Under the pieces are notes generated by a model. The model made no database searches, had not been told where the DNA came from, and saw only the letters and a program-made list of their open reading frames with translations. Shown one piece after another: positions 229-42,223 of a stretch of DNA of 42,408 nucleotides; the first letter of the stretch is position 1, and every line of letters starts with the position of its first letter. Both the position numbers and the translations under genes were made by a program. Source of the DNA: an uncultured Bacilli bacterium (GTDB lineage Bacteria > Bacillota_I > Bacilli_A > RF39 > UBA660); the NCBI GenBank assembly GCA_944371445.1, contig CALVXR010000034.1, positions 1 through 42,408 of the forward strand, written 5' to 3'.

Positions 229-1131
229 ATGGAAATAATTATAGGATCACACGTATCATTTAATTCAAAAGAACAGTTAATTGCTTCAGTAAAAGAAGCT
301 TTATCTTATGGAGCAAATACCTTTATGTTTTATACAGGTGCTCCACAAAATACTAAAAGATGTGAAATAGATGAAAACTTAACAAAAGAAGCTAAAAAAC
401 TATTAGAAGAAAATCATATTAACATAGAAAATATTATAGTACATGCTCCATATATAATTAATTTAGCAAACCCTACTAACTATGATTTTAGTACAGAGTT
501 TTTAGAAGAAGAAATTAAAAGATGCGAAAGTTTAGGTATGAAATATTTAGTACTTCATCCTGGAAGTCATGTAGGACTTGGAGAAGAACAAGGGATTAAA
601 AACATAATAAAAGCACTAAATAAAGTAATAAACGAAAATACAAATGTATATGTATGCTTAGAAACAATGGCAGGTAAAGGAACTGAAATCGGTAAGAACT
701 TTGATGAATTAAAGCAAATAATAGATGGTGTAAAATGTAGTGAAAAAATAAAAATTTGTATGGATACTTGTCATTTAAATGATTCTGGGTATAATATAAA
801 AGATATAGATTTATTGCTTTCTTTATTTGATGAAAAAATTGGACTTAATAAACTTGCATGTATACATATAAATGATAGCAAAAATATAATTGGCTCTCAC
901 AAAGATAGACATGAAAACTTTGGATTTGGAGAAATAGGTTTTAATACTCTTATTAAATATATAAATCATCCTAAATTAAAAGGTATTCCTAAAATATTAG
1001 AAACACCTTATATAAAAGATGATAGTAATCCTAAAAAAACATATCCACCTTATAAATTTGAAATAGAAATGATAAAACAAAATAAATTTAATGAAAATTT
1101 AATTGAAGATATTAAAAATTATTATAAATAG
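229..1131 (+). CDS. nfo: Endonuclease IV (AP endonuclease family 2)
   Basis: N-terminus IIIGSHVS, then HAPYIINL, HPGSH, DTCH and INDS metal-site-like motifs along the full length. I moved the start to ATG 229, which has GAGGA about 6 nt upstream. The ORF track's ATG 211 is the alternative. Confidence 0.9.
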   Translation: MEIIIGSHVSFNSKEQLIASVKEALSYGANTFMFYTGAPQNTKRCEIDENLTKEAKKLLEENHINIENIIVHAPYIINLANPTNYDFSTEFLEEEIKRCESLGMKYLVLHPGSHVGLGEEQGIKNIIKALNKVINENTNVYVCLETMAGKGTEIGKNFDELKQIIDGVKCSEKIKICMDTCHLNDSGYNIKDIDLLLSLFDEKIGLNKLACIHINDSKNIIGSHKDRHENFGFGEIGFNTLIKYINHPKLKGIPKILETPYIKDDSNPKKTYPPYKFEIEMIKQNKFNENLIEDIKNYYK

Positions 1132-1379
1132 TTTTTATATTTATCCTTATAATAAGTATATAGATTAAAAACTTTGTTAAAATTATCTTTTGTTAATTTT
1201 TTTTGAATATCTTTTATAACTACAGTATCATTATATAATAGGTCTTTATATCTTGTTTTTAAAGTAATATATAAAAATTCAAGTTCGTCATCAGAAAGTT
1301 TAATATCATTTCTTAAAGCAAATCCATTTATATCATAAATACTAATCTTTGATATATATTTTTCTAAAAATTTATTCAT
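1122..1379 (-). CDS. Small conserved hypothetical protein, YqfT/DUF2624-like
   Basis: 85-aa ORF with an AGAGGTGA RBS. It sits next to nfo as yqfT does in B. subtilis (from memory). Its 3' end overlaps the nfo 3' end by 10 nt in convergent orientation. Confidence 0.5.
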   Translation of the reverse strand: MNKFLEKYISKISIYDINGFALRNDIKLSDDELEFLYITLKTRYKDLLYNDTVVIKDIQKKLTKDNFNKVFNLYTYYKDKYKNYL

Positions 1380-1436: not shown

Positions 1437-3554
1437 ATGAAAAAAAATAATTATCAAACAGTAAAAAAAGTGATAAAAAAATTACCAGCTAAGAAAAAAC
1501 CTATTAATAAAGTAAATAGAAAATATAAACAAAAAATAAGTGAAAAAATAGAAAAGAGATACTATATATTAATAGGAATAATAATATTTTTCATTTTAAT
1601 TATAGGTATAAATTTATTTAAAATTCAAATAGTACAAAATGAAAAATATAAAAGTAAAGTAGTTTCTCTAACTGAAAAAACTGTATATGGAGAAAGTTCT
1701 CCAAGAGGAAGAATATATGATAGAAATCATAAACTAATAGTTACTAATAAACCACAGAAAGTAATATATTATAAAAAGCCAAAAGGGATTACAAGTACAG
1801 AAGAAATAAAACTTGCATATAAATTATCAAAAATGTTAAATATAGATTTTAGTTCTTTATCAGAAAATAATTTAAAAGAATTTTGGATAAAGAATAATAG
1901 TGAAAAAGCAAAAAATAAAATAACTGATGAAGAATGGCAAAAATTAGAAGAACGAAAAATAAGTTTAGACGATATAGAAAAATATAAAATGGAAAGAATT
2001 ACAGAAGAAGATTTAAGTATTTATAATGATGAAGATAAGAAAGCGGCATATATTTATTATCTTATGAATAAAGGATATTCTTATAGTGAAAAAATACTTA
2101 AAAATGAAAATGTAACAGATGAAGAATATGCTCTTATTTCTGAAAATATAAGTGAGCTCGAAGGTATAGGTACTAGACTTGACTGGGAAAGAGAATATTT
2201 ATATGGGGATACTTTTAGAACTATGCTTGGTAATATATCTACAACAGAAAGTGGAATCCCTAAAGAATTAAAAGCTGATTATTTGAAAAAAGGATATTCA
2301 CTAAATGACAGGGTAGGTATTAGTTACTTAGAATATCAATATGAGGATATTCTAAAAGGAACTAAAAATAAATATAGAGTATTAAGTGATGGTTCATATA
2401 AATTATTAGAAGAAGGTTCTCGCGGAAATGATATAGTACTTACAATTGATATAGAACTTCAAAAACAAGTAGAAGAAATACTTGCAAGACAAATATTAGA
2501 AGCAAAGAAAGAACCTAATACAGAGTATTATAATAGATCGTTTGTAATAATTCAGGATGCTAAAACAGGTGAAATTCTTGCAATGGCAGGGAAACAAGCT
2601 ATTAAAGATGGAGATTCTTATAAAATAGTGGATTATACACCTGGAATTACTACATCACCAGTAGTAGTTGGTTCTGCAGTTAAAGGAGCATCTCATATAG
2701 TAGGATATAATACTGGTGCCTTAAAAATAGGAGAATATAGAGATGATAGCTGTATTAAAATAGCTGCAACTCCTAAGAAATGTTCTTGGAAATATCTAGG
2801 AAGAGTTAATGATCTAAGTGCACTAGCATTATCATCTAATACATATCAGTTTAGAACAGCAATTAATGTAGGGCATGGTACTTATAGATACAATGCTGGA
2901 CTTAAATTAGATGAAGCTGCATTCGATACTTATAGAAATACTTTTGCAGAATTTGGACTTGGAGTAAAGACAGGAATAGATCTTCCTACAGAAAGTTTAG
3001 GATTTAAAGGTACAGATAGAAAGCCTGGACTTTTACTTGACTTTTCAATAGGACAGTATGATACATATACACCTATTCAATTATCACAATATATTACTAC
3101 AATCGCAAATGATGGAAATAGATTAAAACCTTATTTACTTAAAGAAGTTTATGAACCAACAAAGGATGGACTTACTATACTTAAAAGTAAAAATAGTAAA
3201 GTAATTTTAAATAAAGTAAATACAGAAGATAAATATATGCAAAGAGTTAAAGAAGGTCTTAGAGGTACTATGACTTATGGTACAGGTGTGGGTTATATAG
3301 ATTATAGTTATAATGCTGCTGGTAAAACTGGAACAAGTGAAAGTTTTATTGATACTGATGGTGATGGAAAAGTAGATACTGAAACAATTACAAATACTTT
3401 TGTAGCATATGCTCCTTATGATGATCCTAAAGTAACTTTCACAGTATTATCTCCAGATATTAGTCATAGACTTACAAGTAGTACTTATAGTTCAGGTGTA
3501 AATAAAAGAATCACAAGAGAAATATCACAAAAGTACTTTGACATTTACAAATAA
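1437..3554 (+). CDS. Class B penicillin-binding protein (PBP2-type transpeptidase)
   Basis: N-terminal membrane anchor (YYILIGIIIFFILIIGINLF). Transpeptidase motifs SAVK, SSN and KTGT occur in the right order. GGAG RBS. Confidence 0.85.
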   Translation: MKKNNYQTVKKVIKKLPAKKKPINKVNRKYKQKISEKIEKRYYILIGIIIFFILIIGINLFKIQIVQNEKYKSKVVSLTEKTVYGESSPRGRIYDRNHKLIVTNKPQKVIYYKKPKGITSTEEIKLAYKLSKMLNIDFSSLSENNLKEFWIKNNSEKAKNKITDEEWQKLEERKISLDDIEKYKMERITEEDLSIYNDEDKKAAYIYYLMNKGYSYSEKILKNENVTDEEYALISENISELEGIGTRLDWEREYLYGDTFRTMLGNISTTESGIPKELKADYLKKGYSLNDRVGISYLEYQYEDILKGTKNKYRVLSDGSYKLLEEGSRGNDIVLTIDIELQKQVEEILARQILEAKKEPNTEYYNRSFVIIQDAKTGEILAMAGKQAIKDGDSYKIVDYTPGITTSPVVVGSAVKGASHIVGYNTGALKIGEYRDDSCIKIAATPKKCSWKYLGRVNDLSALALSSNTYQFRTAINVGHGTYRYNAGLKLDEAAFDTYRNTFAEFGLGVKTGIDLPTESLGFKGTDRKPGLLLDFSIGQYDTYTPIQLSQYITTIANDGNRLKPYLLKEVYEPTKDGLTILKSKNSKVILNKVNTEDKYMQRVKEGLRGTMTYGTGVGYIDYSYNAAGKTGTSESFIDTDGDGKVDTETITNTFVAYAPYDDPKVTFTVLSPDISHRLTSSTYSSGVNKRITREISQKYFDIYK

Positions 3555-3593
3555 TTTGTTATAATATTATGGAATGAACAAAGGAGGGAAATT

Positions 3594-3761
3594 ATGGCAA
3601 AAAAAGGAGAAGTAAGAGAAAATATTACTTTAGTATGTACTGAATGTAAAAATGAAAATTATAGAACACCAAAAAATAAAAGAAATACTCCTGAACGTTT
3701 AGAATTAAATAAATATTGTAAACACTGCAAAAAAACTACAGTTCATAAAGAAAAAAAATAA
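3594..3761 (+). CDS. rpmG: 50S ribosomal protein L33
   Basis: 55-aa ORF absent from the supplied track: [55 protein letters not shown]. It has the CxxC...CxxC zinc form, an AAGGAGGGA RBS and a TAA stop at 3759-3761. Confidence 0.9.
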
Positions 3762-3797
3762 TTATAAATTTTTTCTTAAAAAGGAAGGAGAACTTAT

Positions 3798-4355
3798 ATG
3801 TTTAATATAAACGATATTAAAAACGGTGTAACTTTCTTACTAGAAGGAAATATATATCAAGTAGTAGAATTTCTACATGTTAAACCAGGAAAAGGTTCAG
3901 CTTTCATGAAAGTTAAACTTAAAAATTTAAGAACTGGTGGAACTGTTGAAAAAACATTTAATACAAATGTAAAATTAGAAAAAGCTAATATACAAAAATC
4001 TACTGTACAATATTTATACAATACTGGTGAAACATATTATTTTATGAATATGCAAACTTATGATCAACTAGAATTATCTAGTGCACAAGTTGGTGATGAC
4101 AAAAACTATTTAATAGAAAATATGGAAGTAGAAGTAGTTCAATTTGGTGACGAACTTCTAGGAATAGTTTTACCAGATAAAATAGAAATGGAAGTTACTG
4201 AAACAGAACCAGCTGTAAAAGGAAATACAACTAACAATGCACAAAAAGACGCTAAAGTTGAAACAGGATTATTAGTTAGAGTACCACTTTTTATAGAGCA
4301 AGGAGAAAAAATACTTGTATCTACTAAAGATGGAAAATATGTATCAAGAGCATAA
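3798..4355 (+). CDS. efp: Elongation factor P
   Basis: 185 aa with the conserved VKPGKGSAF loop (modified Lys) and OB-fold domains. AAGGAAGGAG RBS. Confidence 0.95.
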   Translation: MFNINDIKNGVTFLLEGNIYQVVEFLHVKPGKGSAFMKVKLKNLRTGGTVEKTFNTNVKLEKANIQKSTVQYLYNTGETYYFMNMQTYDQLELSSAQVGDDKNYLIENMEVEVVQFGDELLGIVLPDKIEMEVTETEPAVKGNTTNNAQKDAKVETGLLVRVPLFIEQGEKILVSTKDGKYVSRA

Positions 4356-4367
4356 GCTCTTTTTTTG
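4346..4367 (+). terminator. Intrinsic terminator after efp
   Basis: Stem AAGAGC / GCTCTT with loop ATAA, followed by a T-run. It overlaps the efp stop codon. Confidence 0.6.
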
Positions 4368-4374
4368 TGTATAT

Positions 4375-4403
4375 TTGACAAATATATATTTATATGATAT
4401 TAT
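4375..4403 (+). promoter_or_regulatory. Sigma-A-type promoter of the 4429-6113 cassette
   Basis: TTGACA (4375-4380), 17-nt spacer, TATTAT (4398-4403), with a TGn extension (TGATATTAT). Confidence 0.55.
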
Positions 4404-4428
4404 AACCGAACAAAAAGGAGAAGGTAAT

Positions 4429-4713
4429 ATGGACAATGAAACATTTTATTATTCAAAAAATCTTATCATAGAGATTATTAAAACATTTAAAATAGATTTT
4501 TTAGAAAATATTGTAGATGCATATAATAAATATTTTATAAAACCATCTAATCCAGAAGATATACAAAATGCATTAAATAAATACATAGTTAATAAAAAAA
4601 GGTTACCAAACAGAATATTAACTGAAGAAGAAGAATATTGTTTAGAGTTTGAAAAAGAAAATTATAGAGAATTTAAAAAATTCCATAGTCCAAAAAGAAT
4701 AATAAAAAAATAA
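4429..4713 (+). CDS. Hypothetical protein (94 aa)
   Basis: ATG 4429 follows AAAGGAGAAGG. The ORF-track start at 4315 lies inside efp and its terminator, so it is unlikely. I recognise no family. Confidence 0.55.
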   Translation: MDNETFYYSKNLIIEIIKTFKIDFLENIVDAYNKYFIKPSNPEDIQNALNKYIVNKKRLPNRILTEEEEYCLEFEKENYREFKKFHSPKRIIKK

Positions 4714-4730
4714 ACTTAATAGGGGGTTTT

Positions 4731-6113
4731 ATGAATAAAAAAGAATTTTTAGATTATATGTGGAAAGCAGAACAACTATATAGAAAATTTCAAAAAAAAT
4801 GGCTTAATAAATCATATATTATGAGAATATCTGATGGAAATGTAATAAATTTTTCATTTTATGAACAAAGCTTTGCACACTTAGTTGGAATTCAAATCAA
4901 TAAACTTAAAGAAAGTGGTTTAGTTCCTAAAAATTTACAAGCTAATGATATATTAGAATTTATTTTCTTTAATCCTGAAAGATTTTATAGATTAATTATT
5001 CAAAGTGGTTATAAAACAAAATATTTTATTTCAAGCTATTATAAAGAAAAATTAACAGTTATGAAAAATATTTGTGGCTTTTTACCTGCTAGTTTAGGAT
5101 TCATAGTAAAATTTGATACAAATAAAGCTTTTTTAGTAAATGATGAATTAAAACCTAATGTTGAATATTTATTAGGGTATAAAATAGATGACGGATATGG
5201 AATAATAGGAATAAAAAAAAGTTCCTACGGAAATTATTATCCACTTACCGTTTTATATTATGATAAAGATTCTTTGAAAGAATTACTAAAATATCAAACT
5301 TTATTATTACCTACTTATACTAAAGTTAAAAATATAGAAAACGAAATAATTTCTGAATATGGCTTATATGAACAAGAAAAAATAAGAAAATTAAAAATAT
5401 ATAATTCTGTTTTTGAACGTCAATATGGATGTGTAACTAATTTAACAAGTGATTATATAAGAACATTAGAACATACAACTAATCATCTTATTGAAGAAAA
5501 AGAACAAAATAGACGTTTTAAAGAGGAAAATTATGAATTGCAGGTTTCAAATATAAATCTTAGTAAAGAGAATGATGCTTTAAAACAGGAAGTAAAAAAA
5601 TTAAAGGCTATGTTAAAAATAACAGGAGCAAATGAAAATATAGATAAATATTTAAAATTAAAGATGGATATATTTGATGGAGAAGATATTGATAATAGTA
5701 TAATTGATAGAGCTTTTCTTGCATTTACTAATAAAGAAAGAACTTTATTAGAATATTATTATGGTTTAAATGGAAAAGATAAACTATCTTGGAAAGAAAT
5801 CTCTAATATATATGAGATATCGTCAGTTCATTATATAATCAATAAATTAAAAAATGATTTTAAAAATATATGTTTAGGATTAAAAATAAAAAATCCATAT
5901 ATAGAATTACTTACTGATAGAGAAAAACTAATTTCTTTAGCATTTATTCTTCCAAAAGAAGAAAGGGATGCATTTATTTTAAAAAATGGTTTATTTACTT
6001 GTAATAGAGCATCTAATAAAGAAATATCAGAAACACTTGGTATTCCATATGTAAAAGTAAAAAAAGTAATTGAAAGTGCTGAGGAAAAAGTAAGAGAAAT
6101 GGTAAAAAGATAG
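4731..6113 (+). CDS. Hypothetical protein: unknown N-terminal domain, coiled coil, and two sigma-70 region-4-like HTH modules
   Basis: GGGGG RBS, 18 nt after the upstream stop. Residues 252-296 have a heptad-like charged pattern. Residues 325-380 (KERTLLEYYYGLNGKDKLSWKEISNIYEISSVHYIINKLK) and 393-460 (EERDAFILKNGLFTCNRASNKEISETLGIPYVKVKKVIESAEEKV) resemble sigma-70 region 4. Confidence 0.7.
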   Translation: MNKKEFLDYMWKAEQLYRKFQKKWLNKSYIMRISDGNVINFSFYEQSFAHLVGIQINKLKESGLVPKNLQANDILEFIFFNPERFYRLIIQSGYKTKYFISSYYKEKLTVMKNICGFLPASLGFIVKFDTNKAFLVNDELKPNVEYLLGYKIDDGYGIIGIKKSSYGNYYPLTVLYYDKDSLKELLKYQTLLLPTYTKVKNIENEIISEYGLYEQEKIRKLKIYNSVFERQYGCVTNLTSDYIRTLEHTTNHLIEEKEQNRRFKEENYELQVSNINLSKENDALKQEVKKLKAMLKITGANENIDKYLKLKMDIFDGEDIDNSIIDRAFLAFTNKERTLLEYYYGLNGKDKLSWKEISNIYEISSVHYIINKLKNDFKNICLGLKIKNPYIELLTDREKLISLAFILPKEERDAFILKNGLFTCNRASNKEISETLGIPYVKVKKVIESAEEKVREMVKR

Positions 6114-6222
6114 CAATATCTTTTTATTTTTGGTAAAATATTATTGGTGACTAACTATTAGAAGTCAATACATTTTTAAATATTTTTAATAGTTTGTTAT
6201 AAATTGGAATTTATCCCACGCC

Positions 6223-6260
6223 AAAAAACTTCAAAATCATTTTTTTTAAAATTTTTGAAG
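6223..6260 (-). terminator. Hairpin plus T-run downstream of the transposase
   Basis: On the minus strand: CTTCAAAA ... TTTTGAAG followed by TTTTTT. It could alternatively be part of a 3' ncRNA. Confidence 0.45.
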
Positions 6261-6288
6261 GCTGTAAATAATATAGAATTATAAAATA

Positions 6289-7452
6289 TTATTTCAATAA
6301 AGACGGATCAAAATCAATGTTGTTTTTCTCTAATGAATGAATAACTCTAATAAGTTTTTTACAAACATGAGATAAAGCAACACGATGACATTTACCTTCA
6401 GAACGTTTCTTAAGGTAATAATCATAAAAAGTTGGTGAATATCTTAAAATAATCATTGAAGTATTCATAATTGAATATCTTAAATGACCAGAACCATGTT
6501 TAACCATCTTACCATTATTTTGAATGGTACCAGACTCGCTAACACTAGGTTCAAGGCCAGCAAAAGCTAACATTTTATTAGGAGAAGAAAAATTACTAAT
6601 ATCTCCATATTCAGAAAGAATTACGGCTGCAGATAATTCACCTAATCCAGGAATTGATAACATTCTAGGATTTAGTTCTTTGATAATTGTTGAAATTTGT
6701 TTATCTATTGGATCAATTTTATCATTAAAGCTTTTGATAATAGAAACATAAGTAGAAATAAGTAAATCAGTATTTTTATCGTGATGACCAACTGAATTTT
6801 TAGCAAGTTCTTTTAATTTGGCAAATTTAGCATAAGAAAATTTGCCACGAGAAATTTTATAAATAGAATCGAAATCTCTCATTAAAGAAATATGATCAGT
6901 ATTAATATATTTTTCTAAAACATATAATAATGTAGTAGAAAAAGAATTATTAAAAAATGGCTTTAACTCCGGAAAAGTAAGGTCTAATTCATTTGTTAAA
7001 AGCACATAAAATTTACTTCTTTCTTTAACTAATAGTTCTCTATTTCTACATAGTGACTTTAATGTAAAAATGTTGTATAATAAATTTGAATTTGGTTTGT
7101 AAGGAACAGACATAAGATAATTAGCTATAGTTAAACTATCAGCTTTATCGGTCTTAGTTCTACGTAAGCTTCGAGCTTTTAAAAACTGATGAATGATAAG
7201 AGGATTCATTTTCATAAATGAATAACCTTGATTGGTTAAGAACAGTTCCAAATTCTTAGAATAGTGTCCAGTTGCTTCAAAAGCAATTTGGACTTTGGAT
7301 TTATTATAGGATTTCAATAGTTCTAAAAATGATTGAAATCCTTTTTTGCTGTTTTCAAAAGAATTATTTTCAACAATTACTTCACCTGTATTTGAAATAA
7401 TACAGAAATCGTGTTTGTATTTTGATATATCAATACCAATGTAATATATCAT
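6289..7452 (-). CDS. IS110-family transposase (DEDD RuvC-like N-domain plus Tnp C-domain)
   Basis: IGIDISK, FEATGHY and KTDKADS acidic motifs in the N-terminal half. IPGLGELSAAVILSEYGD and LEPSVSESG (conserved Ser) in the C-terminal half. GGAGGTG RBS. Confidence 0.92.
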   Translation of the reverse strand: MIYYIGIDISKYKHDFCIISNTGEVIVENNSFENSKKGFQSFLELLKSYNKSKVQIAFEATGHYSKNLELFLTNQGYSFMKMNPLIIHQFLKARSLRRTKTDKADSLTIANYLMSVPYKPNSNLLYNIFTLKSLCRNRELLVKERSKFYVLLTNELDLTFPELKPFFNNSFSTTLLYVLEKYINTDHISLMRDFDSIYKISRGKFSYAKFAKLKELAKNSVGHHDKNTDLLISTYVSIIKSFNDKIDPIDKQISTIIKELNPRMLSIPGLGELSAAVILSEYGDISNFSSPNKMLAFAGLEPSVSESGTIQNNGKMVKHGSGHLRYSIMNTSMIILRYSPTFYDYYLKKRSEGKCHRVALSHVCKKLIRVIHSLEKNNIDFDPSLLK

Positions 7453-7770
7453 TTATAAGCACCTCCAAAATTAGTTTGTTTGCACTGAATTGTTTGCCAC
7501 AAGGTTTTTAATCATGTAATCACGTAATCTAATAAAACATCGATTAGTTAAAAACTAACGTGTTAACTAACTAATTAACAATTAAATTAAAAATCTGTGG
7601 TTTTAGTCACCAATAACCAGTCCATAAAATGGCTGTAAAAAATGAGAAACAAATCCACAGTGCATTTCTTATTATATATCACGATGTATAATAAGAAAAT
7701 ATAAATAGAAAGGGATCAATCAATAAGAAATTAATTCATATTTCTATAAGATTGATTATACGTGATATAA

Positions 7771-8523
7771 ATGGATTTTAAAGATAAAGTAGTATTAGTT
7801 ACAGGTTCAGCAAAAGGTCTTGGAGCATCTATTATAGAAATGTTTGCATCTTTAAATGCTAATGTAGTAATTAATTATAATAGTAGTTTAAAAGAAGCTT
7901 TAGAATTAGAAAATAAAATAAAAGAAAAATATAATGTAAAAGTACTTAAAATAAAATGTGATATAACAAATGAATTAGAAGTTAAAAATATGGTAAATGA
8001 AATAATAGAAAAACTAGGTAAAATAGATATATTAGTAGGAAATGCAGGAATTACAATCGAAGATTTTTATGAAAACAAAACAGTTGAAAATTTTAAAAAA
8101 ACATTAAATACTAATTTACTTGGTAATTTTATAGTAACAAAAGAAGTTGCGTCTATAATGTATGAAAATAAAAGTGGAAGTATAGTTTATATATCTTCTA
8201 CTGATGGACTTACTTCTTTTTCACCCGTAAATGTTGATTATAATGCATCAAAAGCAGCACTTAATTCACTTACTCACGATATGGCAATAGCGTACGCTCC
8301 ATATGTTAGAGTAAATGCAGTGGCACCAGGTTTTATAGAAACAGATATGATAAAAATAGAAGATAAAGAAATGGAAGAAATGTTTGTAAAAGAAGAAAGT
8401 TCTAAAATATATTTAGGGAGATTTGCTAAAAAAGAAGAAATCGCAAGTGTAGTATGTTTTTTATCAAGTACGCTTGCTTCTTATATAAATAGTGAAATTA
8501 TTAAAGTAGATGGAGGAATGTAA
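7771..8523 (+). CDS. SDR-family oxidoreductase (FabG-like 3-oxoacyl reductase fold)
   Basis: TGSAKGLG dinucleotide-binding motif, NAG, and YNASKAA catalytic YxxxK. 250 aa. Confidence 0.85.
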   Translation: MDFKDKVVLVTGSAKGLGASIIEMFASLNANVVINYNSSLKEALELENKIKEKYNVKVLKIKCDITNELEVKNMVNEIIEKLGKIDILVGNAGITIEDFYENKTVENFKKTLNTNLLGNFIVTKEVASIMYENKSGSIVYISSTDGLTSFSPVNVDYNASKAALNSLTHDMAIAYAPYVRVNAVAPGFIETDMIKIEDKEMEEMFVKEESSKIYLGRFAKKEEIASVVCFLSSTLASYINSEIIKVDGGM

Positions 8524-36278: not shown

Positions 36279-36352
36279 GGGCTCGTAGCCAAGTGGTAAG
36301 GCACGGGACTGCAACTCCCTGATCGCTGGTTCAAATCCGGTCGGGCCCTCCA
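36279..36352 (+). tRNA. tRNA-Cys (GCA)
   Basis: Cloverleaf folded by hand. Acceptor GGGCTCG / CGGGCCC (one G-U pair), D-arm GCCAAGTGGTAAGGC, anticodon loop CTGCAAC, T-arm GCTGG-TTCAAAT-CCGGT, and an encoded CCA. Confidence 0.9.
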
Positions 36353-36359
36353 TATATAT

Positions 36360-36433
36360 GCAGATGTGGTTTAATGGTAGAACATGACCTTGCCAAGGTT
36401 ACAGCGGGAGTTCGATTCTCCTCATCTGCTCCA
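36360..36433 (+). tRNA. tRNA-Gly (GCC)
   Basis: Acceptor GCAGATG / CATCTGC, anticodon loop TTGCCAA, T-arm GGGAG-TTCGATT-CTCCT, and an encoded CCA. Confidence 0.92.
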
Positions 36434-40216: not shown

Positions 40217-40246
40217 AAAAAAGAATTGACTTACCAATTCTTTTTT
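40217..40246. terminator. Bidirectional terminator shared by rseP and glmS
   Basis: AAAAAAGAATTG-ACTTAC-CAATTCTTTTTT, with A/T runs on both sides. Confidence 0.75.
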
Positions 40247-42014
40247 ATTCTACTGTTACAGATTTAGCTAAATTTTTAGGTTTATCAATATCACAATTCC
40301 TCTTTTTAGCTACAATATATCCTATCATTTGCATAGGTATAATAGTTAAAATAGGATTAACAAAATCATTAATATCAGGAATATTTATTTTAATATTATA
40401 GGAATCATCTGGGATAATACTATTAGTAATTGCTATGACAAAAGCACCTCTTGAGATAACTTCTTTATTATTACTAATTGTTTTATCTTTTAGTTCTTTA
40501 TTAGTTATTACACTTATAACAGGTGTATTTTTTTTAATTAAAGATATCGTTCCATGCTTTAATTCGCCTGCAGCATATGCTTCACTGTGAATATAAGATA
40601 TTTCTTTTAATTTTAAACTACCTTCCATAGAAAGATAATAATCTATACTTCTACCTATAAAAAATATATCTTCCTTTTTATAAATAATTTCAGCTATTTC
40701 TTCATATGAACTATTAATTAGTAATTTAACTTCTTCACTGATTTTATTAAAATCATTTAAATATTCTTCGTATTCTTTTTTACTAATATAATTTTTTTCA
40801 TATGAAGTTTTAAGTGCTAATAAAGATAGGGTAGTTATTTGAGCTAAATAAGCTTTAGTAGTTGCTACAGCTATTTCAATTCCAGCATAGGTATATATTA
40901 TTTCATCTGATTCTCTTGCTATAGAACTTTCTTTTACATTAACAATAGAAAGTGTATCAATCCTTTTTTCTTTTGCTAATTTTAATGCAGCAAGTGTATC
41001 AGCTGTTTCACCAGATTGTGATATAAATATAGCTAGATTATTTTTCTCTTTAAAAATAGGTGAATATCTATATTCAGAAGCTATATGAACATCTACTTTA
41101 ATATCAGCATATTTTTCAAATAAATATTTTCCTACTAATCCTGCGTGATAAGCACTACCACAAGCAATAATATCTATTTTATTATATTTATCTAAACTTT
41201 TAATATTTTTTAATTCTTTTATTGTTTTAGATATTACTTCTGGCTCTTCATTTATTTCTTTTAACATAAAGTGTTCGTATCCATTTTTGTTAACATTATT
41301 ATTATCTCCATTAAATGTATTTGAATTTTTCTCAATCACTTTATGATCATTATAAAACGTTACATAATCTTTTTCTATAACAGCTATTTCATAATTATCT
41401 AAAAGATAATATTTATTAGTATAATTAAGTATAGCAGGAACATCAGATGCGATAAAAAATCCATCGTTACTTTTTCCAACAATTAAAGGACTTTCTTTTC
41501 TAAGAGCATATATTTTGTCTTTTTCATCACTACATATAATTCCAAAAGCAAAAGAGCCTTTTAGTTCATATTTTATTTTTTCTAAAGTTTCTAATATATC
41601 ATTAGTTTGTTTATAATTATAGTCAATATAAGCTGCAGCTACTTCTGAGTCTGTATCACTTAAGAAAGTATAACCTTTTTTTATAAGTGTATTTTTTATT
41701 TCTTTGTAATTTTCTATTATACCATTATGTACTAAAGTAATTTTACCTATAGTATGTGGATGAGCATTTTTAAAGTTTGCTTTTCCATGCGTTGCCCATC
41801 TAGTATGAGCTATACATAGATAAGTATTTTTTTTTAAATCTAATTTTTTTTCTAGATTAATAATTTTTCCACTTGTTTTAATTAGTTTTATTTTGTCTTC
41901 TATTACGTAAGCAACACCAGCTGAATCATATCCTCTATATTCCAAAGATTTTAAACTACTAATAACAACTGGAAGAGCTTTCTTTTTTCCAATATAACAT
42001 GCAATACCACACAT
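40245..42014 (-). CDS. glmS: Glutamine--fructose-6-phosphate aminotransferase
   Basis: True start MCGIACY (Cys2 nucleophile) at 42014, with a GGAGG RBS. Two SIS domains and a C-terminal KSVTVE. The track's upstream extension runs through the ribozyme. Confidence 0.95.
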   Translation of the reverse strand: MCGIACYIGKKKALPVVISSLKSLEYRGYDSAGVAYVIEDKIKLIKTSGKIINLEKKLDLKKNTYLCIAHTRWATHGKANFKNAHPHTIGKITLVHNGIIENYKEIKNTLIKKGYTFLSDTDSEVAAAYIDYNYKQTNDILETLEKIKYELKGSFAFGIICSDEKDKIYALRKESPLIVGKSNDGFFIASDVPAILNYTNKYYLLDNYEIAVIEKDYVTFYNDHKVIEKNSNTFNGDNNNVNKNGYEHFMLKEINEEPEVISKTIKELKNIKSLDKYNKIDIIACGSAYHAGLVGKYLFEKYADIKVDVHIASEYRYSPIFKEKNNLAIFISQSGETADTLAALKLAKEKRIDTLSIVNVKESSIARESDEIIYTYAGIEIAVATTKAYLAQITTLSLLALKTSYEKNYISKKEYEEYLNDFNKISEEVKLLINSSYEEIAEIIYKKEDIFFIGRSIDYYLSMEGSLKLKEISYIHSEAYAAGELKHGTISLIKKNTPVISVITNKELKDKTISNNKEVISRGAFVIAITNSIIPDDSYNIKINIPDINDFVNPILTIIPMQMIGYIVAKKRNCDIDKPKNLAKSVTVE

Positions 42015-42044
42015 ATTAATCCTCCTTGTCTTAAAATAAAAAAT

Positions 42045-42177
42045 ATGTATGATATATGATTTGTTACAATGTTTATTTTGTTTTTTGCACATATCTAACG
42101 GATTACACATCCGAAGTAGCATCCGCCGAAATTTCGATAACTACTTACCTCGTCACCTATTTAAAGGTCTGGCGCTC
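42045..42177 (-). ncRNA. glmS ribozyme (GlcN6P-dependent self-cleaving leader)
   Basis: The minus strand reads A/GCGCCAGACC...GGUGACGAGGUAAGUAGUUAUCGAAAUUUCGGCGGAUGCUACUUCGGAUGUGUAAUCCG. This matches the conserved core AGCGCCAGA...GACGAGG...GUUAUCGAAUUUUCGGCGGAUGC recalled from Bacillus. P3 is CGGAU/AUCCG and P4 is GAUAUGUG/CAUAUAUC. Confidence 0.85.
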
Positions 42178-42223
42178 ATTTTAATATTTTTACGATCCTC
42201 CTTAAAATAATAAAACTAAAATA

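Follow-up and report, generated by a model that had tools for sequence, protein, structure and literature searches.

A vertically inherited two-gene operon beside efp in uncultured Bacilli encodes a putative PBECR4-family protein with tandem sigma-70 region-4-like modules

Which kind of system occupies the interval between efp and an SDR gene in an uncultured Bacilli bacterium, and what could its two proteins do? The window analyzed here (the whole stretch of 42,408 nucleotides) carries two plus-strand ORFs at this position, followed by an IS110 element. A first-pass annotation, made from the sequence alone, had described them as a self-contained cassette of unplaceable proteins in a position where accessory modules such as defence, toxin–antitoxin (TA) or phage-derived regulators tend to accumulate.

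The cassette is a genuine self-contained two-gene operon with its own promoter (Table 1), and the elements that had been proposed for it (a promoter, two tightly spaced genes and a weak 3′ hairpin) all hold. The sigma-A-type promoter matches the consensus at 11 of 12 positions and has a TG-extended −10 box; only one other site between 3500 and 8000 scores ≥11/12, and weaker promoter-like matches in this interval are no commoner than chance (41, versus 36.7 expected from shuffled sequences). The five related upstream regions all keep the TG-extended −10 box and the RBS, and their −35 box does not vary. The two ORFs had been read correctly as encoding 94 and 460 residues, but the spacer between them is 17 nt and not 18 nt; their ribosome-binding sites are AGGAGAAGG (4416–4424) for the small gene and GGGGG (4722–4726) for the large one. 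The efp terminator, the sole terminator-like site in a consensus scan of 3500–8000, is clean, is kept in the related loci L001, L002, L094, and L095 and lies just 5′ of the cassette, which is therefore transcriptionally separate from efp. The consensus scan misses the 3′ hairpin because it has too few G-C pairs, but folding gave −9.3 kcal/mol (z = −3.2 vs. shuffles) and a U-run follows, in keeping with the weak AT-rich hairpin first described. The 48 nt at 6103–6150 are 100% identical in L001, ahead of the SDR gene, and nearly identical in L093; this hairpin is probably the operon's intrinsic terminator. The cassette gave no Rfam match and contains no tandem repeats, which led us to reject an RNA component or repeats of the type III TA kind.

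Table 1. Coordinates of the cassette features in the window.
Feature	Position	Strand	Description
efp intrinsic terminator	4346..4361	+	AAGAGC-ATAA-GCTCTT plus T-run; upstream boundary of the cassette
Perfect 17-bp palindrome	4370..4386	.	TATATTTG-A-CAAATATA; overlaps the −35 box; candidate operator
Sigma-A-type promoter	4375..4403	+	TTGACA (4375–4380), 17-nt spacer, TATTAT −10 (4398–4403), TG at 4395–4396
Small gene	4429..4713	+	ATG 4429, stop 4711–4713; 94 aa
Large gene	4731..6113	+	ATG 4731, stop 6111–6113; 460 aa
N-terminal domain, aa 1–250	4731..5480	+	Putative divergent PBECR4-family domain, predicted metal-independent endoRNase
Coiled coil, aa ~251–300	5481..5630	+	Presumed dimerization element, within the hypervariable segment
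Sigma-70 region-4-like HTH module 1, aa ~318–380	5682..5870	+	Sigma70_r4 at 334–365
Sigma-70 region-4-like HTH module 2 and stop codon, aa ~392–460	5904..6113	+	Sigma-model matches
Operon 3′ hairpin and U-run	6101..6133	+	12-bp AT-rich stem 6101–6112 / 6117–6128

The palindrome over the −35 box may be an operator, with weak statistical support: 8+8 palindromes of this kind occur 20 times in 42.4 kb, giving a chance of ~0.03 of meeting one in a given 60-bp promoter. It is perfect in four of five related loci and matches at 7/8 in L001, a conservation that is not discriminating because the entire surrounding region is conserved.

As the first-pass annotation had anticipated, no family model claims either protein directly: no match from Pfam, PADLOC, PHROGs, or NCBIfam reached its curated threshold, and the TA models of PADLOC, Pfam, and NCBIfam matched neither protein. 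The PADLOC check that it had proposed likewise returned no defence-system component for the cassette proteins, and among 81 family members PADLOC-DB 2.0 gave only scattered weak matches (best E = 7.6e-05). AF1548-like_C for the large protein (E = 0.03) and DUF3201 for the small one (E = 0.006) were discarded as sub-threshold matches without meaningful recurrence in homologs. Membrane-spanning segments were found in neither protein.

A family for the N-terminal domain can be reached through its relatives, contrary to the earlier statement that neither protein could be placed. A profile of the window subfamily recovered at least 212 cluster representatives, 86 of them at E ≤ 1e-10, including P0010 (E = 7e-21), which matches PBECR4 (PF18813) at 32.5 bits over its conserved core, residues 31–179 (model positions 12–141/188), above the Pfam gathering score of 27 bits. 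P0014 and P0018 have precomputed PBECR4 matches, P0002 has only a “weak” precomputed one, and three of the 81 family members match PF18813 at E ≤ 0.01; hmmscan of the window protein, P0001, and P0003 with PF18813 gave no match even at E ≤ 10. Since only relatives such as P0010 match the model, membership of the window protein is transitive and not direct. A word-indexed homolog search with a profile of 22 N-domain sequences added P0043 only. This transitive profile evidence places the N-domain as a putative divergent member of the PBECR4 family; the assignment reaches no further than a domain family whose RNase activity is a computational prediction throughout the available text of its description (Iyer, Burroughs, Anand, de Souza, & Aravind, 2017; PMC5512222).

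Residues of the domain are conserved in a manner which suggests an active site. Across 81 aligned members with ~20% overall identity, H50, G53, S101, K107, and T/S173 are invariant (81/81; at position 173, T in 50 and S in 31), and Y146, P171, and Q189 are near-invariant (Q189 in 80/81). In the available text of PMC5512222, PBECR domains are defined by a His in an N-terminal helix together with a C-terminal Thr/Ser; in the AF2 model of residues 1–250 (pLDDT 91.5), H50 is in a predicted helix (45–51) and T/S173 in a predicted strand (169–177). The modeled order, a His-bearing helix followed by strands 124–127, 146–152, 155–163, and 169–177, is compatible with the BECR fold. The structural comparison suggested by the first-pass annotation gave this confident model of the domain but no PDB neighbor at E ≤ 0.001 (best E = 0.08, TM ≤ 0.23), and no BECR protein was among the best 50 PDB matches; BECR folds are hard to detect (preprint 10.64898/2026.08.28.747851). 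A PDB sequence search with the N-domain profile gave nothing significant, and the fold is common to two phage proteins found as structural neighbors in BFVD. On the strength of its residues and family, the N-domain may be an RNase.

The rest of the large protein follows the three-part layout first proposed, with a long coiled-coil helix and two stretches resembling sigma-70 region 4 (residues ~318–369 and ~396–458) after the N-domain. The helix spans residues 241–295 in the predicted model, and the coiled-coil region gives weak matches to HALZ, ZapB, DivIC, and bZIP-type/leucine-zipper profiles. HTH module 1 is matched by SigE, SigK, and RpoD models at their region-4 positions, and module 2 by TIGR02937 (positions 117–164/165), PRK06930 (NF005385; 104–162/170), phrog_1190, and Sigma70_r4_2, so that both align to region 4 of ECF, SigE/K, RpoD, and PRK06930 models. 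With the Sigma70_r4 model the window protein scores 19.0 bits, P0001 23.9, and P0002 25.4; only P0002, which has two Sigma70_r4 stretches, is above the cut-off of 24.1. Both modules match region 4 of several independent sigma models in four of four subfamily members, and five NCBIfam sigma models match at region-4 positions in these four proteins; region-4 matches with both modules were found nowhere else in the family.

Unlike sigma-70 factors, the window protein has region 4 twice in tandem, scoring below curated cut-offs, and lacks regions 2 and 3. Region 2 gave no match in the four subfamily proteins, sigma matches with given coordinates lie where the models have region 4, at their C-terminal end, and the Pfam sigma matches are all to region 4 except for one non-significant Sigma70_r3 match in P0002 (E = 3.5). 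Because regions 2 and 3 are absent, the large protein cannot be a promoter-melting sigma factor. The two modules share 33% identity over 43 aa (E = 0.1), which does not support a recent internal duplication. A PDB sequence search with the C-terminal profile found no solved-structure relative, and Foldseek with the full-length model (pLDDT 56.6, low confidence in the C-terminal part) gave only noise. The profile matches thus characterize the C-terminus as sigma4-like, and its modules may bind DNA, a candidate target being the palindrome in their own promoter.

The small protein (pI 8.6) has no family match, and a PDB sequence search with its profile gave nothing significant. Its gene is 5′ of the large gene in every locus that includes this region (the window, L001, L002, L093, L094, and L098–L103), and the small-protein HMM found no match adjoining distant N-domain family members. 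Co-occurrence of the pair is thus constant in the sigma4-bearing subfamily, but does not extend to most distant family members with visible context. A partner throughout the wider family was rejected since P0011, P0018, and P0160 have none upstream; of two other candidates, an “88-aa ORF” in L083 resembles, as we read its sequence, a seryl-tRNA synthetase gene at its C-terminal end, and an 81-aa acidic ORF in L085 is unrelated and has no Pfam match. The small gene presumably encodes a clade-specific partner of the large protein. The sigma4 modules and the small protein share their origin, in the clade of the window.

The neighborhood of the cassette had been taken as a clue to its function. 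The IS110 element has foreign codon usage (GC3 0.33 vs. 0.09) and is missing from every related locus reaching past the large gene (L093, L098–L100, and L001); in L093 and L098–L100, the SDR gene is directly 3′ of the large gene, the order in relatives being large gene, terminator, SDR. The IS110 element is a private, recent insertion in the genome of the window, its position beside the cassette is coincidental, and it does not mark a mobile or defence island. The cassette itself is present in seven of seven informative contigs with identical EF-P and at the same locus in the sister species. Neither ORF is disrupted in any recovered copy, across more than 12 contigs from different samples. Codon usage (GC3) is native and synonymous divergence is flank-like, on which grounds we reject a recent horizontal acquisition. 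The cassette is fixed and vertically inherited in its lineage, at odds with the patchy accessory island that had been imagined; the efp-to-SDR junction is a variable slot, as had also been suggested, between more distant species. Of the outcome that would have refuted the first-pass annotation only half applies: the pair is universal in close relatives, but no annotated housekeeping role goes with it.

Within this stable locus, the parts of the operon evolve at very different rates. Between the window and L001, dN/dS (NG86; approximate values, because dS is probably compressed at a GC3 of ~9%) is 0.60 for the N-domain, 0.73 for the coiled coil, 0.46 for the small protein (0.35–0.62 across comparisons), and 0.23 for the C-terminus, compared with 0.06–0.17 for flanking genes with broadly similar dS. 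The N-domain and coiled coil evolve about ten times faster than the flanking genes, whereas the C-terminal 150 residues are 79–87% identical across the subfamily (dN/dS 0.22–0.29). N-domains are just 47% identical between genomes with identical EF-P fragments, identity breaks sharply at ~4650 and at ~5650, where the variable segment ends, and four-taxon topologies conflict. A second lineage of the wider family has a similar pattern, P0011 and P0160 being 40% identical as opposed to 68–79% in their flanks. These breaks and conflicting topologies show that recombination has swapped the N-domain and coiled coil, with conserved arms on either side.

The elevated dN/dS of the small gene, N-domain, and coiled coil, together with a family name and two BFVD structural neighbors that indicate phage relatives, could suggest a decaying phage or mobile-element gene pair which is now without function and drifting under relaxed constraint. 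This is largely refuted and very improbable: the ORFs are intact wherever recovered, promoter and ribosome-binding sites are conserved, dN/dS is below 1 throughout, no catalytic-type residue varies, and purifying selection on the C-terminal part is clear. There is also a likeness to polymorphic toxin/immunity loci and other conflict genes with swappable domains, which have a hypervariable enzymatic-type domain between conserved arms, recombinational allele exchange, and preserved catalytic-type residues. Unlike these loci, the cassette has no secretion or delivery domain, TM segment, or signal, its variable domain is N-terminal, its small gene is upstream without co-variation, and it occurs as one copy at a fixed locus, orphan cassettes being absent. 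A cognate immunity protein co-varying with the RNase domain is a weakened reading because the phylogeny of the small protein does not track that of the N-domain; between the window and L002, identity is 78% for the small protein, 83% for the C-terminus, and 47% for the N-domain.

This pattern brings in an explanation in which the HTH modules are the output. The cassette would be a lineage-specific transcription regulator binding its own promoter or a regulon, with the PBECR4-like domain sensing RNA or a ligand, or oligomerizing, without being a nuclease, and with the small protein as co-regulator or anti-sigma-like antagonist. Conservation within the protein is highest in the C-terminal HTH part, which matches both sigma region 4 and PRK06930, a model for a “positive control sigma-like factor”, and a palindrome covers the −35 box. 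Small protein and sigma4 modules co-appear in this clade only, and the history of the small protein is closer to that of the C-terminus than to that of the N-domain. Fixation, vertical descent, and native composition agree with a regulator, and inactive PBECR domains may bind RNA according to the available text of Iyer et al. (PMC5512222). We nevertheless consider this explanation rather unlikely: the invariant His/Ser/Lys/Thr-Ser/Gln/Tyr set in 81 divergent members suggests an active site over a passive sensor, a sensor domain with a dN/dS of 0.6 and allele swapping is unusual for an ordinary regulator, and HTHs are entirely missing from the wider family, so its ancestral function needs no DNA binding.

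That wider family consists mostly of chromosomal proteins of ~380 aa with the domain followed by a coiled coil, from AT-rich gut Bacilli. It comprises at least 212 clusters at 50% identity with a tightly kept length of 368–409 aa; the window architecture occurs in just four cluster representatives (all 460–473 aa), with the HTH modules and the small upstream gene confined to the narrow clade of the window. Members such as MBQ6547104.1 (“hypothetical protein”) share with the window protein the N-domain with its invariant residues, the coiled coil, chromosomal location, a slot fixed between related species, and fast evolution, but lack the sigma4-like modules and the small upstream partner. P0011 and P0160 occupy one slot between species, with proS-tgt-queA on one side and a dCMP deaminase gene on the other. 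Most members with visible context are solo genes lacking a small partner, which argues against a constitutively toxic enzyme.

A lineage-specific housekeeping RNase, linked to RNA processing or translation, has to be weighed here. The ~380-aa family would be a core though fast-evolving gene of AT-rich gut Bacilli, to which the window copy adds a DNA-binding tail and an accessory subunit. Members are chromosomal, usually solo, and keep their slot between species, the cassette is fixed in its species with native codon usage, and the number of clusters and narrow length range fit a core gene. Four of the five distinct contexts seen (efp/rpmG, tuf, queA-tgt-proS, and serS; the exception being L096) adjoin translation or tRNA genes, although this link is post hoc and concerns separate transcription units. 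Relatives were not found in annotated phages or plasmids (tblastn of P0011 and P0010) or in three scans of viral contigs. Searches of GTDB genomes for the subfamily or family and of JGI metagenomes (by automatic patterns and by an EYYYGLNGK DNA pattern) also gave none. We judge this reading unlikely: chromosomal position varies by lineage, so that there is no deep synteny, no family member lies within 10 kb of efp in any of 80 related genomes, and rates 3–10× those of neighbors with recombinational allele exchange are atypical of housekeeping enzymes. Moreover, the PBECR4 proteins of Pfam are otherwise known from phages, conjugative elements, and an Enterococcus plasmid.

Compared with the PBECR4 proteins of PMC5512222, the window N-domain belongs to the same family by the transitive route and has the defining His and Thr/Ser. 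In contrast to them, the cassette is chromosomal, fixed, and outside the polyvalent proteins found in phages or on conjugative elements, and the window protein itself falls below the Pfam threshold. Its domain of ~250 aa has a helical insert and is followed by the coiled coil and two sigma4-like HTH modules, an architecture absent from those listed in the available text of PMC5512222.

We tentatively favor, at somewhat less than even confidence, a conflict-type RNase module that controls its own expression and has a regulatory partner. The coiled coil would dimerize the large protein, and the sigma4-like modules would bind DNA, most economically the palindrome over their own −35 box, leading to autorepression of a very strong promoter. 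The N-domain would cut RNA through His50, Ser101, Lys107, and Thr173, along with Tyr146 and Gln189, and the small protein would bind the large one and restrain or tune it in an antitoxin- or anti-sigma-like manner. The module could then serve in genetic conflict, for example phage defence or a TA-like stress response. A conflict role is proposed to account for the contrast between a fast-diversifying, recombinationally swapped RNase domain and coiled coil on one side and unchanging catalytic-type residues and DNA-binding part on the other. There is precedent for single genes that join a BECR toxin domain to an HTH antitoxin domain on its C-terminal side (Gerdes, 2025; PMC11980606) and for BECR domains in defence systems (PMC11980606; preprint 10.64898/2026.08.28.747851). 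Against a conflict module, a cassette that is fixed, vertically inherited, of native composition, and, in relatives, distant from mobile elements is not typical of defence or TA modules.

The comparison with RelE/ParE-superfamily TA modules, either fused in a single gene or bicistronic type II (PMC11980606), points in both directions. An N-terminal BECR-type domain (as predicted here) with a C-terminal HTH, and a small adjacent gene co-transcribed under the same likely autoregulated promoter, are shared features. Unlike these modules, the cassette has a BECR family of PBECR4 and not RelE/ParE type, a duplicated HTH that resembles sigma-70 region 4 and not Xre, RHH, or MqsA, a coiled coil between its two parts, and no TA or PADLOC match. 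Type II TA toxins come with a constant partner and a patchy, mobile distribution; here the partner is constant in the sigma4-bearing subfamily but missing beside most distant family members with visible context, and the cassette is fixed and vertically inherited.

A further reading is quite improbable in our judgment, namely that the tandem sigma4 look-alikes mimic region 4 of the host primary sigma factor. They would then not be ordinary operator-binding domains, but might serve as bait for phage anti-sigma proteins directed at region 4 or dock to the beta-flap of RNA polymerase, releasing or positioning the PBECR4 RNase against transcripts; the system would be a guard- or decoy-type immune sensor, or else an RNase riding on the polymerase, and the small protein would act as keeper. 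The sigma4 half is conserved, region 2 is absent, the modules and the small protein share their origin in this clade, and the RNase half diversifies in an arms-race-like way.

Predicted RNases of the PBECR kind are widespread in phages and mobile elements, and a large PBECR4-related family (at least 212 clusters) now appears as fixed chromosomal genes of uncultured AT-rich gut Bacilli, annotated just as “hypothetical protein”. The family evolves 3–10× faster than neighboring genes at conserved positions, and His50, Ser101, Lys107, and Thr/Ser173, with Tyr146 and Gln189, provide a hypothesis for its active site. In a rare sub-clade, the PBECR4-like domain is combined with a pair of sigma-region-4-like modules and a small partner protein, in a compact operon of ~1.7 kb that is clonable with its strong native promoter and candidate operator. 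If the predictions of RNase activity and DNA binding prove wrong, gut bacteria would still have in this family a conserved unknown of considerable size; if they are true, the operon would represent a new architecture coupling RNA cleavage to promoter or polymerase recognition.

The first-pass annotation had described a self-contained pair of genes with its own near-consensus promoter, ending in a weak AT-rich hairpin, and both descriptions were borne out: the two open reading frames, the promoter and a Shine-Dalgarno sequence in front of each gene were found, and the hairpin was recovered in a segment that is identical in the related locus L001. Both genes run in the same direction with a 17-nt spacer between them, and their promoter is an 11/12 match, a score of at least 11/12 being reached at just one further site within 4.5 kb. 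The -35 box, TG-extended -10 box and ribosome-binding site are conserved in all five related upstream regions recovered, and a perfect 17-bp palindrome spans the -35 box. The consensus terminator scan made no call at the terminal hairpin, neither protein contains transmembrane segments, and no Rfam families or tandem repeats were found within the cassette.

Positions of the features discussed, in the window unless another locus is named.
Feature	Locus	Position	Strand	Details
85-aa ORF	window	1122-1379	minus	convergent to AP-endonuclease gene, 10-nt overlap with gene end
efp terminator	window	4346-4361		canonical; upstream boundary of cassette
Cassette	window	4375-6130		
Cassette promoter	window			downstream of efp terminator; TTGACA-17-TATTAT, TG two bases ahead of -10
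Small gene	window	4429-4713	plus	94 aa
Large gene	window	4731-6113	plus	460 aa
Terminal hairpin and U-run	window	6101-6133		12-bp AT-rich stem; -9.3 kcal/mol, z = -3.2
Terminator segment	window; L001	6103-6150; 13868-13915		48 nt, 100% identity
14-nt inverted repeats	window	6141-6154 and 7603-7616		perfect match
IS110-family element	window	6150-7754		between operon terminator and SDR gene; Pfam DEDD_Tnp_IS110 and Transposase_20
IS110 transposase gene	window	6289-7452	minus	Pfam
Overlap of SDR and Met-gamma-lyase-family ORFs	window	8510-8523		14 nt; mechanical ORF list
Two adjacent tRNA genes	window	36279-36430	plus	
625-aa ORF	window	40245-42122	minus	preceded by glmS ribozyme
glmS ribozyme	window	42041-42187	minus	81 bits
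Genes for 595- and 138-aa proteins	L001	11645-13870		between large gene and shared terminator segment
efp-SDR slot, examples	L004; L005; L014; L017; L026	10555-12103; 10555-13813; 5440-6450; 10555-11162; 6467-7478		relatives
81-aa ORF	L085	9744-9989		11 nt upstream of P0010; very acidic, pI 4.1

The window has a G+C content of 24.9%, and none of 185,579 species-representative genomes has an EF-P more than 84% identical to that of the window, the top matches being MAGs of uncultured gut "Bacilli" or "Tenericutes". Comparison of the stretch separating efp from the SDR gene qualified the earlier suggestion of an accessory module: the cassette is present in all informative contigs with an identical EF-P and in sister loci, and absent from this stretch in 80 more distant relatives. 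All contigs that encode exactly the window EF-P and reach far enough carry it (L098-L104, from different samples), the gene order in L098, L099 and L100 being efp, small gene, large gene, SDR. The pair lies at the same position in L001, L094 and L095, where EF-P is 94.5% identical to that of the window over the aligned fragment and the fragments of L094 and L095 equal that of L001 at the protein level, and L002 has the efp terminator and cassette promoter in common with the window. Among the 80 relatives (L003-L082) neither cassette protein is encoded at this locus (0/80), the interval measuring about 10 bp to 3.2 kb and being empty or holding unrelated genes. Across these species the efp-SDR junction is a variable slot, just 10-400 bp long in some; its unannotated ORFs include ones of 244, 265, 168 and 313 aa, and the L005 slot appears to hold several clustered hydrophobic ORFs, probably for membrane proteins, with a small Xre-like HTH ORF. 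Elsewhere in the window, the 85-aa ORF has no Pfam match; most of the 80 related genomes have a counterpart in the corresponding place (26-40% identity), which makes a genuine small gene probable.

A mobile-element neighbourhood, which the first-pass annotation had taken as a typical setting for accessory modules, is not a property of the locus. The IS110 element is absent from every related locus extending beyond the large gene, and its GC3 of 0.33, against 0.08-0.11 in the cassette and host genes, indicates foreign codon usage; it is therefore a recent insertion private to the window genome. Its left junction, made up of target flank and IS end, reads TTATTGGTGACTAA, and an inverted copy lies ahead of the transposase gene, in its non-coding leader; this 14-nt match is reminiscent of the guide loops found in IS110/IS621 bridge RNAs. 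No Rfam family matched this leader. On the right side of L001 lie a 595-aa protein, which has choline-binding repeats as well as a pilin-like N-terminal methylation motif, and one of 138 aa whose N-terminus appears lipoprotein-like, and the two loci have therefore undergone independent insertions or deletions at one spot.

When both proteins were scanned directly against Pfam, PADLOC, PHROGs and NCBIfam, nothing rose above threshold, the sole signal being a weak sigma-70 region-4 similarity found twice in the last third of the large protein. Close homologs are very scarce: among 5.8 billion sequences, the large protein has three cluster representatives and the small protein four. Searching 1.84 billion cluster representatives with a profile built from the first 250 aa of the large protein (N-domain) gave 212 matching proteins at E <= 1e-3, of which 86 reached E <= 1e-10. 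P0010, a wider-family protein matching this profile at E = 7e-21, scores 32.5 bits over the conserved core against the curated threshold of 27 for Pfam PBECR4, a computationally predicted BECR-fold endoRNase family, and two further members, P0014 and P0018, have precomputed PBECR4 matches. Nearly all full-length members in an 81-member alignment are 368-409 aa long and carry the domain N-terminally, a coiled coil coming next; at an overall identity of about 20%, H50, G53, S101, K107 and T/S173 are invariant in 81/81, with Q189 conserved in 80 and Y146 in 77. Both PBECR4-defining motifs are present in the N-domain, which is most aptly classed as a divergent member of the PBECR4 family, its membership being transitive. 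The earlier statement that neither protein could be placed thus stands for the small protein in direct scans, and gives way for the large one, whose N-domain is PBECR4-related by transitive profile.

A model of the N-domain from a 22-sequence alignment (pLDDT 91.5, pTM 0.86) predicts H50 in a helix (residues 45-51), then a helical insert with S101 and K107, and four strands, T173 lying on the last. A BECR fold is compatible with this model, though unconfirmed: Foldseek found no neighbour among solved structures, solved BECR proteins included, so that sequence and motif are the basis of PBECR4 membership. The sole significant structural neighbours were two unnamed phage proteins in BFVD, A0A097BYD4 (202 aa) and A0A4D6ASU0 (256 aa), at E of about 2e-6, TM 0.5-0.6 and 13% identity. 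That the cassette is a decaying remnant is very improbable in view of the invariant family residues and of reading frames intact in more than 12 contigs.

The two DNA-binding HTH modules proposed at first pass agree with the C-terminal matches. Region 4 of ECF, SigE/K and RpoD models matched both modules in the last 150 aa of all four subfamily proteins, which also match a sigma-like positive-control-factor model, and the subfamily protein P0002 exceeds the Pfam cut-off for sigma-70 region 4; none of the other wider-family members gave region-4 matches. Unlike sigma-70 factors, the large protein joins a region-4-like C-terminus to no region 2, which was found in none of the subfamily proteins, so it is not a sigma factor. 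It may still be a transcription regulator with the N-domain as sensor, a reading we hold to be rather unlikely. The small protein belongs to no family in the four libraries and has no solved relative, and no homolog of it was detectable beside distant family members.

Between the window and L001, the flanking genes have 80-96% amino acid identity and dN/dS of 0.06-0.17 (NG86; rough estimates, as GC3 is about 9%), compared with 66% and 0.46 for the small protein, 48% and 0.60 for the N-domain, 42% and 0.73 for the coiled coil and 79% and 0.23 for the sigma4 part, while dS is broadly alike (0.39-0.69 in the flanks, 0.49-0.78 in the cassette). Three haplotypes occur within the species; mean dN/dS is 0.16-0.31 for the cassette versus 0-0.11 in efp, PBP and SDR. 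Despite the matching EF-P fragments, the L094 N-domain is 47% identical to that of L001, compared with 65% to that of the window. Nucleotide identity between the window and L002 is about 90-95% over most of the small gene, falls abruptly to 45-70% at about 4650 and rises abruptly to 80-93% at about 5650, the end of the coiled coil, with dS of 0.17 in the small gene, 0.76 in the N-domain and 0.35 in the C-terminus. Four-point sums pair the window with L002 in the small gene and with L094 in the N-domain. These conflicting topologies and sharp boundaries indicate that recombination has swapped a central segment, which is bounded by conserved arms and comprises the small-gene tail, N-domain and coiled coil.

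The wider family behaves likewise: P0011 and P0160, in the same slot, are 40% identical between flanks of 68-79%. Of the five distinct contexts seen for this family of about 380-aa proteins, four place the gene beside translation or tRNA-modification genes, namely after rpsL-rpsG-fusA-tuf and before RNase J (L085), between proS-tgt-queA and dCMP deaminase (L089/L090/L091/L097, the slot of P0011 and P0160), after the end of a serS-like gene (L083) and after rpmG-efp (window). Such adjacency may have arisen by chance, the genomes being small, or may hint at a function, and it speaks for a lineage-specific housekeeping or translation-linked RNase; the observation is post hoc, and we consider that explanation unlikely. 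The 81-aa ORF in L085 has no Pfam match, is unrelated to the small protein of the window and might serve that lineage as a small partner of independent origin.

The best-supported reading, which we put forward tentatively, is an autoregulated operon in which the large protein would be a dimeric, DNA-associated predicted endoRNase, the small protein its regulatory partner, and the RNase module would act in genetic conflict. Such a role is suggested by enzyme-like invariant residues within a fast-diversifying, recombining domain, by the conservation of the putative DNA-binding half and by the tight coupling of the small gene to the large one, the palindrome over the -35 box of the near-consensus promoter being weak evidence for autoregulation. 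Precedent exists in BECR toxin-HTH fusions and in BECR effectors of defence systems (PMC11980606; preprint 10.64898/2026.08.28.747851). The RNase activity is, however, a prediction, the cassette shows fixation and vertical inheritance instead of a patchy distribution, most of the distant family members stand alone, no defence or TA model matched in a PADLOC scan that included family members, and the N-domain and small protein do not co-vary.

The combination of a PBECR4-like domain, a coiled coil, two sigma4-like modules and a small partner was not found described in the literature searched, matches no library model and, at the sensitivities used, is absent from GTDB representatives, IMG/VR, JGI metagenomes and annotated phages and plasmids; as far as these sequence searches reach, it is known only from the narrow clade of the window. 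With its function inferred, the cassette would offer a compact, clonable way into an uncharacterised family of gut-bacterial enzymes that numbers at least 212 sequence clusters.
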